DNA of 64,000 bases. Origin: Escherichia coli. GTDB lineage: Bacteria > Pseudomonadota > Gammaproteobacteria > Enterobacterales > Enterobacteriaceae. Shown in pieces: positions 36,327 through 39,300 of the stretch. The number at the start of each line of letters is the position of its first letter. The stretch's first letter is position 1. The DNA lies in assembly GCF_045037415.1 (NCBI RefSeq), contig NZ_CP173438.1. The stretch is one strand, 5' to 3'. Made by a program: the position numbers.

Positions 36327-39300
36327 TAAGGAAGTTCGATGGAAAGCAAACGTCTGGATAATGCCGCGCTGGCGGCGGGGATTAGCCCCAATTACATCAA
36401 TGCCCACGGTAAACCGCAGTCGATTAGCGCCGAAACCAAACGGCGTTTGCTTGACGCGATGCATCAACGTACCGCCACGAAAGTGGCGGTAACGCCAGTC
36501 CCGAATGTCATAGTTTATACCAGCGGCAAAAAAATGCCGATGGTGGTGGAGGGCAGCGGCGAATATAGCTGGCTGCTGACCACCGAAGAAGGAAAGCAGT
36601 ACAAAGGCCATGTGACGGGGGGCAAAGCGTTCAATCTACCGACGAAGCTGCCGGAAGGTTATCACACGCTGACGCTTACCCAGGACGACCAGCGCGCGCA
36701 TTGCCGGGTGATTGTCGCCCCGAAACGCTGTTACGAACCGCAGGCGTTGCTGAATAAACAAAAGCTGTGGGGTGCCTGCGTTCAGCTTTATACGCTGCGA
36801 TCGGAAAAAAACTGGGGTATTGGGGATTTTGGCGATCTCAAAGCGATGCTGGTGGATGTGGCAAAACGTGGCGGGTCGTTTATTGGTCTGAACCCGATTC
36901 ATGCGCTCTATCTGGCAAATCCGGAAAGTGCCAGCCCGTACAGCCCGTCTTCTCGCCGTTGGCTGAATGTGATTTATATCGACGTTAACGCAGTTGAAGA
37001 TTTCCATCTTAGCGAAGAGGCTCAGGCCTGGTGGCAGTTGCCGACCACGCAACAGACGCTGCAACAGGCGCGGGATGCCGACTGGGTTGATTACTCCACG
37101 GTTACCGCCCTAAAAATGACAGCATTACGAATGGCGTGGAAAGGTTTCGCGCAACGTGATGATGAGCAGATGACCGCGTTTCGCCAGTTTGTTGCAGAGC
37201 AGGGCGACAGCCTGTTCTGGCAGGCAGCCTTTGATGCGCTACATGCCCAGCAAGTGAAAGAGGACGAAATGCGCTGGGGCTGGCCAGCATGGCCAGAGAT
37301 GTATCAGAACGTGGATTCGCCAGAAGTGCGCCAGTTCTGCGAAGAACATCGTGATGACGTCGATTTTTATCTCTGGTTGCAGTGGCTGGCTTACAGCCAG
37401 TTTGCCGCCTGCTGGGAGATAAGCCAGGGCTATGAAATGCCGATTGGCTTGTATCGTGATCTGGCCGTTGGTGTAGCAGAAGGTGGGGCAGAAACCTGGT
37501 GCGACCGTGAACTGTATTGCCTGAAAGCGTCGGTTGGCGCGCCGCCGGATATCCTCGGCCCGTTGGGGCAGAACTGGGGATTGCCGCCAATGGACCCGCA
37601 TATCATCACCGCGCGTGCCTATGAACCGTTTATCGAGCTGTTGCGTGCCAATATGCAAAACTGCGGCGCATTACGAATTGATCACGTGATGTCGATGCTG
37701 CGTTTGTGGTGGATACCGTATGGCGAGACGGCAGATCAGGGCGCGTATGTTCACTATCCGGTGGATGATCTGCTCTCGATTCTGGCACTCGAAAGTAAAC
37801 GTCATCGCTGTATGGTGATTGGTGAAGATCTCGGTACCGTACCGGTAGAGATTGTCGGTAAGCTGCGCAGCAGCGGTGTGTACTCCTACAAAGTGCTCTA
37901 TTTCGAAAACGACCACGAGAAGACATTCCGCGCACCGAAAGCGTACCCAGAGCAGTCGATGGCGGTTGCGGCGACACACGACCTGCCTACGCTACGCGGC
38001 TACTGGGAGAGTGGGGATTTAACGCTGGGCAAAACGCTGGGGCTGTATCCGGATGAAGTGGTACTGCGCGGTCTGTATCAGGATCGCGAACTGGCGAAGC
38101 AAGGGCTGCTGGATGCTCTGCATAAATATGGTTGCCTGCCAAAACGTGCCGGGCATAAGGCATCGTTGATGTCGATGACACCGACGCTGAATCGTGGCTT
38201 ACAGCGCTACATCGCCGATAGCAACAGCGCCCTGTTAGGGCTCCAGCCGGAAGACTGGCTGGATATGGCAGATCCGGTAAATATTCCCGGCACCAGTTAC
38301 CAGTATAAAAACTGGCGACGTAAACTTTCCGCAACGCTTGAGTCGATGTTTGCCGATGATGGTGTGAACAAGTTGCTGAAGGATTTGGACAGACGGCGCA
38401 GAGCGGCAGCGAAGAAGAAGTAGAGTGCGGTTGATGCCGGATGCGACGCTTGACGCGTCTTACCGGCCTACTAATTAATGCCGAATCGTAGGCCGGATAA
38501 GGCGTTCACGCCGCATCCGGCCATCAGTATTATCAAATCACCATATTCAGCAGCAGACAGCCTACCAGACCGCACACCGAGATAATGGTTTCCAGCATCG
38601 ACCAGGATTTGATGGTCTCGCCGATAGTCAGGTTAAAGTACTCTTTGAACAGCCAGAAGCCCGGATCGTTCACGTGAGAGAAAATCACACTACCGGAACC
38701 AACCGCAATAACCATCAGCTCCGGGCTAACACCCGTCGTTGCAATCAGCGGTGCCGCGATACCACCCGCAGTGATTGCCGCGACGGTTGCGGAACCCAGC
38801 GCGATACGCAGTACGGCAGCAATCGACCAGGCCATCAGCAGCGGAGAAATGTTGGTTTCGTGCATCATGGAAGCAATGTATTTGTCCACGCCGCTGTCTA
38901 CCAGCACCTGCTTGAACGCACCGCCACCACCGATAATCAACAGCATCATCGCAATGATTTTGATGGAAGAAACCAGCGTGTCGTTAATCTGATCCATTGA
39001 ACGGCCACGGTTCAGACCAAAGGTGAACATCGCGATCAGCACGGCAATCAGCGTAGCCATTACCGGGTCACCGAGGAACTCCGCTACCGGCAGGAAAGCG
39101 TGACCTTTCGGCAGGATCATTTCGGCAATCGCACGCATCGCCATCAGAACCACCGGCACCAGAGAGGTCCAGACGCTGACGCCAAAGCTCGGCATCTCTT
39201 CTTCGCTGAAGGTTTTCGCGCTGTACAGACCTTCCGGGATCGGCTTATCGATACCTTTCAACACGCGAGCGTAAACCGGACCGGCGAGAATCACGGTCGG

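Follow-up and report, generated by a model that had tools for sequence, protein, structure and literature searches.

REP/BIME elements at two convergent gene junctions of Escherichia coli: a polymorphic BIME-2-like pair between malQ and gntT and a decayed BIME-1 between nudE and mrcA

Two palindromic sequences lie at convergent gene junctions in the stretch of Escherichia coli DNA analysed here (64,000 nucleotides of contig NZ_CP173438.1; hereafter the window), one between malQ and gntT (site 1) and one between nudE and mrcA (site 2). The window is chromosomal, with 100% identity to strain SK1144. The questions raised by these sequences are what class of element each represents, whether either is prone to rearrangement, and what effect they might have on the genes on either side. 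An earlier note on this DNA had taken both for REP/BIME units at convergent junctions, and this was borne out. The best explanation, to which a probability of roughly 0.9 is attached, is that both are REP/BIME elements at convergent 3' junctions, site 1 being the BIME-2-like REP254 and site 2 a fossil BIME-1, REP251. Both are already known as catalogued, ordinary E. coli repeats; the detail added here is an internal deletion at site 1 in ∼56% of genomes.

The orthologous K-12 elements are listed as REP254 (3547888-3547974, malQ/gntT) and REP251 (3525479-3525576, nudE/mrcA), each of the class Convergent (supplement, Harris et al. 2026, bioRxiv 10.64898/2026.03.23.713779). The K-12 RefSeq feature tables contain no repeat_region at either locus, and the catalogue names therefore depend on the preprint supplement. 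Position, architecture and orientation are common to each site and its K-12 counterpart, with mean column identities of 97% (REP254) and 95% (REP251), short flanks included. Relative to REP254, site 1 has a C for T at 38447 and a 1-nt deletion in the tail of its z2 REP (CTTA-CCGG in the alignment); relative to REP251, site 2 lacks 1 nt of the y stem and has a linker with several changes. The catalogued REP251 interval (98 bp) does not include the conserved flanks found here by alignment.

Table 1. Genes and repeat features at the two convergent junctions (window coordinates)
Feature	Position	Strand	Basis or remark
malQ	36339-38423	+	K-12 and other RefSeq annotation under sequence matches; convergent with gntT around site 1
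z2-type REP (palindromic unit)	38436-38471	+	Sequence GCCGGATGCGACGCTTGACGCGTCTTACCGGCCTAC; head GCCGGATGCG to tail CCTAC; z2 profile
Part absent from the short allele; it forms the apex of the long hairpin between the REPs	38448-38512		Long and short alleles aligned
S-type linker TAATTAATGCCGAATC between the REP tails, 16 nt	38472-38487		Sequence
y-type REP, GTAG start on the + strand	38488-38521	-	Sequence GTAGGCCGGATAAGGCGTTCACGCCGCATCCGGC; perfect match to the classical consensus
gntT	38533-39849	-	Annotation as for malQ
nudE	61374-61934	+	Annotation as for malQ; convergent with mrcA around site 2
Left flanking motif TAAATGCGTGAAGTTT	61932-61947		Overlaps the nudE stop codon (61932-61934); aligns with flanks of K-12 REP243, REP256 and REP258
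Decayed z1-type REP ACCTGATGCATAATGCTTATCAGGCTTAC; CTAC box changed to TTAC	61948-61976	+	z1 profile, alignments
L-type linker, 35 nt, AT-rich, with IHF-like site	61977-62011		Alignment; Rfam ES036/CssrF
Decayed y-type REP; GTAG changed to GTTG, one stem base deleted (CAC-CCG)	62012-62044	-	y profile, alignments
Right flanking motif ATAAACAAGTGCACTTTGTCAGCAAACT	62045-62072		Conserved in K-12 REP243, REP256 and the gltD/gltF element (ATAAACAAAGCGCACTTTGTCAA.AATCT)
Bidirectional intrinsic-terminator-like hairpin AAAAAGGCGC-CGAA-GCGCCTTTTT	62074-62097		10-nt arms 100% complementary; outside the REP family
mrcA	62100-63980	-	Annotation as for malQ

Read directly from the sequence, site 1 (38436-38521) consists of a z2 REP, a 16-nt linker and an inverted y REP, arranged tail to tail. 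The z2 unit is the iREP in the Ton-Hoang convention. BIME-2 elements combine z2 and y REPs across a short linker and have been described as occurring in multiple tandem copies (Ton-Hoang et al. 2012, PMC3333891). Site 1 shares the inverse z2 and y units, the tail-to-tail order and the short linker, and it resembles K-12 REP263 and REP26; GCCGAAT..ATC is common to its linker and the 23-nt linker of REP263, the K-12 BIME-2 linkers examined being 11-23 nt long. In contrast to the tandem arrays, one z2-y pair only is present in the window, in K-12 and in PSS-11, and site 1 is therefore termed BIME-2-like rather than a typical BIME-2. The folding potential of the site is considerable, with RNA folds of -57.7 and -58.7 kcal/mol on the two strands (z = -6.8 and -7.1) and separate hairpins for the z2 REP (-17.7 kcal/mol, z = -4.3) and the y REP (-25 kcal/mol, z = -6.0). 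Folded as DNA, the segment 38448-38512 reaches -14.9 kcal/mol (z = -3.7). As an inverted REP doublet with a possible long hairpin, in which both tetranucleotide boxes and the required stem mismatch are intact, site 1 also resembles the REPINs associated with RAYT (TnpA-REP). The likeness does not extend to recent mobility, for which site 1 gave no evidence, the same locus being occupied from Salmonella to E. coli.

Membership of the REP family was assessed with nhmmer profiles trained on REP units from other K-12 loci, with 20 dinucleotide shuffles of the window as the null. Seven units at five loci in the window, all of them intergenic, scored 15-40 bits, against a shuffle maximum of 12.8 bits. 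At site 1 the z2 profile matched 38436-38471 with 21.8 bits (E = 1.3e-5) and the y profile 38488-38521 with 39.9 bits (E = 1.8e-11). At site 2 the y profile matched 62013-62044 with 21.4 bits (E = 1.3e-5) and the z1 profile 61949-61976 with 15.4 bits (E = 1.1e-3), this last being the weakest unit and near the null maximum. The y REP of site 1 matches the classical consensus GCCKGATGCGRCGY...RCGYCTTATCMGGCCTAC over its full length with 0 mismatches, and no full-length consensus match at ≤3 mismatches per half was found in the shuffled windows. With matches to both consensus and profiles, the outcome of no match to REP families did not occur. The left REP of site 1 was missed by the substitution-only consensus scan because of its 1-nt deletion, and was recovered by the profiles. 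Across the window the tail motif gave 4 matches (0.46 expected) and the head motif 17 (5.25 expected). RyhB was the sole Rfam family in the window at gathering thresholds, and the REP-derived families naRNA4 and ES036 appeared below threshold only: the y REP of site 1 matched naRNA4 with 37.4 bits, and the site 2 linker (61969-62008, - strand) matched ES036/CssrF (RF02751) with 36.1 bits, 1.5 short of the gathering score of 37.6. When used as a megablast query, site 2 was found in one place per genome, its own locus, and its status as a repeat is visible by alignment and profile.

Site 2 (61948-62044) is a decayed BIME-1. Elements of this class comprise z1 and y REPs with a long conserved L linker, often containing an IHF site (Ton-Hoang et al. 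2012, PMC3333891). Like BIME-1 (RIP/RIB) elements, site 2 has z1 and y units, an L linker of 35 nt with an IHF-like site, outer flanks and a single copy. It differs from them in lacking GTAG/CTAC in both REPs, in a mutated linker hairpin arm (TGCAA to TGAAA) and in an ES036 score just below threshold. The alignment with K-12 REP243, REP256 and REP258 runs over z1, linker, y and both flanks; these conserved flanks belong to the repeat, which therefore spans ∼61932-62072. The REP pairs of both sites lie at most 1-3 nt off the coordinates given in the earlier note, whereas the repeat at site 2 is larger than had been supposed. Within the linker, the sequence ATTCAATAAATTG (- strand, 61987-61999) is one mismatch from WATCAANNNNTTR, and the three K-12 elements have the same one-mismatch site at the same position; it may thus be a candidate for IHF binding, as judged from the sequence.

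The same note had described both sites as classic REP palindromes, a description that suits site 1 and not site 2, where the box has been lost, the folds are weak and megablast finds no match to other REPs. The foot boxes of site 1 are intact (CCTAC ends at 38471; GTAG occupies 38488-38491), in contrast to the TTAC and GTTG of site 2, which are mutated also in K-12 and five other strains. Box loss at site 2 is consistent with decay rather than non-membership. The hairpins of its z1 and y REPs reach -8.4 kcal/mol (z = -2.9) and -16.5 kcal/mol (z = -2.5), and the whole site folds as RNA with -33.2 and -35.2 kcal/mol on the two strands (z = -2.4 and -2.7). The element is present in 5,422 of 5,426 genomes. 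Its variable columns amount to 23-35% in the REPs and linker, compared with 6% in the flanking coding sequence. The linker is more decayed in some other strains, among them EECO1006 and F1140. Site 2 is a fossil: both of the boxes that the REP-associated transposase needs to recognise a REP carry mutations, and the sequence drifts fast. What the transposase (RAYT / TnpA-REP) requires of the sequence is found at site 1 but not at site 2. A general targeting of REPs by IS609 was considered separately and rejected, three other IS609 copies having no adjoining REP.

A different structure lies next to site 2. The hairpin at 62074-62097 abuts the mrcA stop codon (62100-62102), is flanked on either side by runs of A and T and folds as RNA with -16.2 and -16.7 kcal/mol on the two strands (z = -3.5 and -3.7); moreover, it is nearly invariant across 7 strains. 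A consensus terminator scan found no site at either BIME and did not call this hairpin either, probably because it treated the A/T runs as part of the stem. It is this hairpin that probably carries out nudE/mrcA termination.

Both sites had also been proposed as potential sites of rearrangement, and here they part company: site 2 is fixed in structure, with a locus span of 400-403 bp in every sampled genome, whereas site 1 is polymorphic in structure across the species and exists in two forms. The short allele, counted with a junction-specific query at a coverage of at least 80%, is an exact 66-bp internal deletion that leaves two REP ‘heads’, and it was found in 3,056 of 5,426 complete genomes (∼56%); the long allele, with two REPs, accounts for ∼44%. 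The missing segment is 65 nt in the window and 66 nt in K-12, and the junction is ambiguous by a 2-nt GC microhomology. What is left in the short allele is a 21-bp head-to-head remnant that forms a hairpin with a 9-bp stem, at the same distance from both stop codons as the long allele. In the 3' UTRs of two regulated genes for sugar utilisation, the hairpin comes in two strengths, ∼-58 kcal/mol (long) and ∼-21 kcal/mol (short).

The form of the deletion suggests how it may have arisen. Deletions at palindrome centres by slipped mispairing are known in E. coli, and the site 1 segment likewise is a near-symmetric apex, is bounded by a 2-nt direct repeat and leaves a shorter perfect palindrome behind. 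From this product, and from the general instability of palindromes, we infer hairpin slippage, in which the 66-bp hairpin apex would be lost as DNA and the two heads would remain. Site 1 would be unstable as DNA because of the same palindromy that allows its RNA to fold. Excision by TnpA-REP was weighed as another origin of the deletion and is not favoured, since the end points lie within the REP stems rather than at the described cleavage sites, with one possible break at C/T only.

What might the elements do? No intrinsic terminator was found between malQ and gntT by the consensus terminator scan and the two stop codons lie 12 and 11 nt from site 1; the malQ and gntT transcripts therefore run into it. 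In such a transcript the site can form two REP hairpins or, alternatively, a single long one of ∼90 nt. By analogy with REPs that have been studied, site 1 may hold up 3'-to-5' exonucleases and, assisted by Rho, stop part of the transcription arriving from either side. Gyrase binding and cleavage are known for the BIME-2 class, and site 1 would by its class be a candidate gyrase site. A published experiment on either locus was not found, and these functional statements are all transferred from other REPs. Work by Liang et al. from 2015 reportedly indicated that ribosomes can stall at REPs lying up to 15 nt from a stop codon; stalling of this type would apply to malQ, gntT and nudE, the nudE stop being 13 nt from site 2. 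Genome-wide, the presence of a REP between convergent genes correlates with higher expression of both, and ∼40% of REPs between convergent genes fall inside mapped bidirectional terminators. In K-12, Rho-binding peaks overlap both REP254 and REP251, and a BST entry, read here as a bicyclomycin-sensitive transcript, lies antisense to malQ at 3547987-3548839 (supplement of Harris et al. 2026, bioRxiv 10.64898/2026.03.23.713779).

Three other readings of these data were considered. That the palindromes might be gene-specific terminators or chance GC-rich hairpins outside any repeat family is suggested by their location exactly where terminators are expected, with site 1 the sole structured element between malQ and gntT, by the plain bidirectional intrinsic terminator that Citrobacter amalonaticus has at the malQ/gntT junction, and by the confinement of the site 2 megablast match to its own locus. 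Against this, no U-run follows the stems of either BIME, and the agreement of the units with the REP consensus and with independent profiles greatly exceeds that of the shuffles. Site 1 as a query has matches at a median of 34 places per genome (5,425 genomes), and site 2 can be aligned, over ∼140 nt, with BIME-1 elements from three unrelated loci of K-12. Copy number, consensus match, BIME-1 alignment and profile scores leave this reading effectively ruled out. The second concerns the direction of the change at site 1, for which outgroups were reached via GntT homologues (a wobble pattern for the GntT C-terminus gave 3 loci only, none from E. coli). In Salmonella diarizonae the malQ/gntT junction is occupied by a tail-to-tail BIME of two REPs, Citrobacter rodentium shares the gntT-proximal REP with E. 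coli site 1, and the closest of the outgroups reached, E. albertii, has an allele of the short type (GCCGGATGCGGCGCATCCGGC). Simple parsimony on the E. albertii allele would place the short head-to-head palindrome as ancestral within Escherichia, the long BIME having been rebuilt through an insertion or through conversion templated by another BIME-2; the short allele is moreover the majority form in E. coli, and the K-12-type long allele has a non-consensus T exactly at the junction (GCGAT/GC, the slash marking the junction), which could be a relic of an ancestral GAT loop. However, a palindrome made of two REP heads presupposes a two-REP ancestor, the Salmonella BIME occupies the same position, no mechanism is known that inserts precisely the tail halves of two REPs, and the short form reads GGC at the junction in E. 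albertii but GAT in E. coli, as separate deletions would give. An ancestral short form is thus unlikely, and because Salmonella has a two-REP BIME at this junction the short allele is most likely the derived form.

The third reading accepts the REP/BIME assignment and holds that the elements are functionally inert at both loci, being selfish or neutral relics of RAYT (TnpA-REP) activity in permissive convergent 3' junctions, with no selected effect on the expression of malQ, gntT, nudE or mrcA. It draws on the variation at site 2, 4-6 times greater per column than in the neighbouring coding sequence, and on the loss there of both GTAG boxes; on the dispensing with the site 1 REP bodies in more than half of genomes; on the different elements, or none, at the malQ/gntT junction of related species; and on published reports that REP effects are variable and context-dependent. 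Conversely, the short allele is still a stable hairpin (-21.2 and -20.4 kcal/mol) with its spacing to both stops unchanged, a palindrome has been held at the malQ/gntT junction since before the split of Escherichia and Salmonella, and the Rho-binding peaks over both K-12 REPs and the genome-wide association of REPs with higher expression of convergent pairs also count against this reading. On balance, inertness at both loci is a tenable though somewhat doubtful account. A bolder proposal for site 1, which we regard as improbable, is that the two alleles of this near-balanced malQ/gntT polymorphism differ in mRNA stability, Rho-dependent read-through or gyrase recruitment, and that they are maintained either by selection or by hairpin-driven deletion that recurs.

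Overall, the assignment of both sites as catalogued E. coli REP/BIME elements has small value for discovery; its practical use lies in a precise annotation of type, orientation and flanks at both sites and of the true terminator that adjoins one of them. Site 2 shows a BIME-1 in the fossil state, its recognition boxes gone and its position kept, and site 1 illustrates the decay of a BIME via loss of its hairpin apex. Comparative and expression work on malQ and gntT should allow for the polymorphism at site 1. If the two alleles do differ in their effects as proposed, the malQ/gntT locus would be a natural experiment on the role of REPs at a convergent junction.

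REP/BIME repeats occupy two convergent gene junctions, malQ/gntT (site 1) and nudE/mrcA (site 2), with gene names taken from matching RefSeq annotation. The window, a stretch of E. coli chromosome, runs in reverse orientation relative to K-12 MG1655 (roughly 3.52–3.59 Mb). Both sites align base-for-base with K-12, and both are 100% identical to strain SK1144 (NZ_AP018784.2). Their K-12 counterparts are listed as REP254 (3547888–3547974, malQ/gntT, Convergent) and REP251 (3525479–3525576, nudE/mrcA, Convergent) in the supplement of Harris et al. (2026, bioRxiv 10.64898/2026.03.23.713779), which also lists REP253 (nfuA/gntT) and REP252 (yhgF/feoA). 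The yhgF/feoA spacer contains a y + z1 pair in E. albertii and the y unit alone in E. coli.

Positions of the repeats, their flanking genes and other features in the window
Feature	Position	Strand	Remarks
RyhB sRNA	2810–2874		83.1 bits
glgP/glpD interval	22962–26125		about 3 kb extra DNA
Hairpin at glgP end	about 22973–23003		plain terminator
rtcA	30056–30565		C-terminal fragment only, profile positions 200–338 of 338
Mini-palindrome GCCGGATCCGACGCATTATCCGGC	30579–30602		between rtcA fragment and malT; 8.2 bits, not significant
malQ	36339–38423	+	convergent with gntT
Site-1 left REP GCCGGATGCGACGCTTGACGCGTCTTACCGGCCTAC	38436–38471		z2, 21.8 bits
Site-1 linker TAATTAATGCCGAATC	38472–38487		16 nt, read from sequence
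Site-1 right REP GTAGGCCGGATAAGGCGTTCACGCCGCATCCGGC	38488–38521		y, 39.9 bits
gntT	38533–39849	-	convergent with malQ
Single REP after nfuA	40157–40190		z2-type, 22.3 bits; K-12 REP253
rpnA (yhgA)	42367–42808		two overlapping fragments only, 136 aa and 54 aa
Single REP after yhgF	46192–46217		decayed y-type, 17.1 bits; K-12 REP252
IS609 with REP	55275–56823		yhgE/hslO convergent junction
IS609 end hairpins	about 55306–55332 and 56757–56787		
IS609 tnpA remnant	about 55330–55517	-	truncated, HVHLV motif
IS609 tnpB/insQ	55540–56748		intact
REP by IS609	56796–56823		z1-type, 27.7 bits; tail 2–4 nt from IS609 right end
nudE	61374–61934	+	convergent with mrcA
BIME-1 left flank motif	61932–61947		overlaps nudE stop codon (TAA, 61932–61934)
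Site-2 short REP ACCTGATGCATAATGCTTATCAGGCTTAC	61948–61976		z1, 15.4 bits
Site-2 linker	61977–62011		35 nt, AT-rich
Site-2 inverted REP GTTGGCCGGATAACGCGTTCACCCGCATCCGGC	62012–62044		y, 21.4 bits
Hairpin AAAAAGGCGC-CGAA-GCGCCTTTTT	62074–62097		symmetric, A and T runs at sides; abuts mrcA stop codon
mrcA	62100–63980	-	convergent with nudE

The earlier note had placed REPs after malQ and nudE. Indeed, profiles derived from other K-12 REP loci scored the units of the two sites at 15.4–39.9 bits, against a best score of 12.8 bits in 20 shuffles. The REP consensus agreed at site 1, where the right unit showed 0 mismatches to the classical sequence, and dinucleotide-shuffled windows gave 0 full-length matches at ≤3 mismatches per half. 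Compared with K-12, the left unit lacks 1 nt (CTTA-CCGG), and because of this it was missed by a substitution-only consensus scan.

The malQ/gntT spacer is 109 nt long, with 12 nt preceding the left REP and 11 nt between the right REP and the gntT stop codon. The REP tails, CCTAC and GTAGG, are opposed across the linker. Under the definitions of Ton-Hoang et al. (2012; PMC3333891), z2 + short linker + y is a BIME-2 arrangement; site 1 has one such unit, not a tandem array. The arrangement recurs in K-12 REP263 and REP26, with linkers of 23 nt and 11 nt, respectively. A 401-nt query centred on site 1 found matches in 5,425 of the 5,426 complete genomes of E. coli, at a median of 34 places in each, and the core of site 1 is therefore a dispersed repeat. 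As RNA, the spacer folds at −57.7 kcal/mol (z = −6.8) on the plus strand and −58.7 kcal/mol (z = −7.1) on the minus strand, either as two hairpins or as one long inter-REP hairpin; the DNA fold is −32 kcal/mol (z = −5.6). A terminator scan found nothing resembling an intrinsic terminator at site 1.

Site 1 is polymorphic in length. In 60 records evenly spaced down the match ranking, the locus measured 401–402 bp in 26 rows and 336 bp in 33. The short allele is a z2 head fused to a y head, the REP ends opposite the tails, with the intervening 66 bp gone and the break ambiguous by a 2-nt GC. Its junction, GCCGGATGCGAT followed directly by GCATCCGGC, is identical in O157:H7, C43(DE3), O139:H1, HYM1, 94EC, KY1497 and CFSAN018748, and a 57-nt junction-specific query at a coverage of at least 80% matched 3,056 of 5,426 genomes. 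The remnant hairpin has a 9-bp stem (RNA −21.2 and −20.4 kcal/mol; DNA −13.3 kcal/mol). In the folds, the 66 bp lost from the short allele make up the near-symmetric apex of the long hairpin between the REPs. K-12 REP26 includes a similar head-to-head mini-palindrome, and the palindrome beside the rtcA fragment has the look of a REP head fused to a REP tail, the apex between them lost.

The E. albertii allele is also of the short type but differs at its centre, GCCGGATGCGGCGCATCCGGC; on its own it would suggest that the short form is ancestral. However, outgroups located via GntT homologues, with their junctions aligned, favour the opposite polarity: in Salmonella enterica subsp. diarizonae the position of site 1 is taken by a tail-to-tail BIME of two REPs, and Citrobacter rodentium has two REPs, the gntT-proximal one positionally orthologous. 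Moreover, a palindrome of two REP heads presupposes a two-REP ancestor. The two-REP form is thus very probably ancestral and the short forms deletion derivatives. Judged solely from the deletion product, these would most likely have arisen by slippage across the hairpin. At the same junction, Citrobacter amalonaticus has only a plain bidirectional intrinsic terminator (L029, about 2517–2555) and Phytobacter massiliensis a different species-type palindrome, CCCTCTCCCTTTCAGGGAGAGGGCCGGGGTGAGGG (L016, about 1535–1600), indicating that junction occupancy turned over between genera. A pattern exactly matching the window and K-12, run against a genome-contig collection, hit E. albertii, Phytobacter and a contig labelled "Martelella alba" but no E. 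coli record; the Martelella contig places an enterobacterial-type GntT C-terminus beside an unrelated upstream gene, possibly through mis-binning or contamination.

Site 2 has BIME-1 architecture under the PMC3333891 definitions: z1, an L linker with an IHF-like site, and y, in single copy. On the minus strand the linker reads ATTCAATAAATTG, 1 mismatch from the IHF consensus WATCAANNNNTTR; reference BIME-1 copies share the site and the identical mismatch. Alignment with four K-12 elements of ~98 bp, REP243 (obgE/dacB), REP256 (glpD/glgP), REP258 (livF/ugpB) and the gltD/gltF element, showed z1, linker and y in common and the outer flanks conserved too, so that the repeated unit runs from ~61932 to ~62072. 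The interval of the earlier note therefore captured the REP pair (61948–62044) but fell short of the full element, which also exceeds the 98-bp catalogue interval. Since its left flank overlaps the nudE stop codon, the nudE reading frame may owe its end to the element, which could have supplied or fixed it. The linker scored 36.1 bits against Rfam ES036/CssrF (gathering score 37.6); RyhB is the sole Rfam family above its gathering score in the window.

Site 2 is decayed. Its tetranucleotide boxes read TTAC for CTAC and GTTG for GTAG, its hairpins fold weakly (−8.4 and −16.5 kcal/mol; z = −2.4 and −2.7 on the two strands of a 126-nt stretch), and megablast found the orthologous locus only, at 1 place per genome. 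The locus occurs in 5,422 of 5,426 genomes, with a length of 400–403 bp in all sampled rows. Among seven diverse strains, variable columns made up 23% of the z1 REP, 35% of the L linker and 26% of the y REP, against 6% of the nudE and mrcA coding flanks and 6–11% of the outer flank motifs and terminator; intact GTAG/CTAC boxes were found in 0 of the 7. Site 2 is therefore stable in position and drifting in sequence. The hairpin abutting the mrcA stop codon, nearly invariant between strains, is the likely bidirectional terminator for nudE and mrcA; a simple terminator scan made no call there.

Elsewhere, the yhgE/hslO junction holds an IS609 copy (IS200/IS605 family), found there in 549 of 5,426 genomes; in K-12 the junction is just a 62-nt spacer containing half of the z1-type REP that lies beside IS609 in the window. 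Window positions 55100–57000 are 100% identical to an O25b:H4-ST131 strain, and none of three other IS609 copies has an adjacent REP. The extra glgP/glpD DNA includes an ORF of 505 aa encoding a PstS-like domain, whereas K-12 has a yzgL remnant and the BIME-1 REP256, absent from the window. Between glpR and malT the window lacks any large ORF for rtcB or rtcR, and rpnA (879 nt in K-12) appears disrupted.

At the family level, 3′-UTR REP hairpins block 3′-to-5′ exonucleases and also serve as partial terminators dependent on Rho, and REPs between convergent genes are correlated with higher expression of both. BIME-1 linkers bind IHF, BIME-2 elements bind gyrase, and TnpA-REP requires the GTAG box and a stem mismatch (PMC3333891). 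In K-12, Rho-binding peaks overlap REP254 and REP251, and a BST entry (3547987–3548839) lies antisense to malQ just past REP254 (Harris et al., 2026, supplement). Read as a bicyclomycin-sensitive transcript, its position fits Rho stopping gntT read-through after the site-1 BIME. By analogy, site 1 would work chiefly through RNA, stabilising 3′ ends in both directions and partially stopping transcription with the help of Rho (probability about 0.6). That it is instead an inert, tolerated relic is the alternative, less likely but still plausible. Site 2 we take to be a fossil BIME-1, unneeded for termination, which may still bind IHF.

BIMEs are known to vary between strains, according to the part of PMC3333891 that cites Bachellier et al. 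(1997). The allele frequency, exact junction and outgroup polarity of the malQ/gntT BIME, which were not found stated elsewhere, are incremental details. Overall, sites 1 and 2 belong to known families, are the same elements as already named in K-12, and are of low interest.
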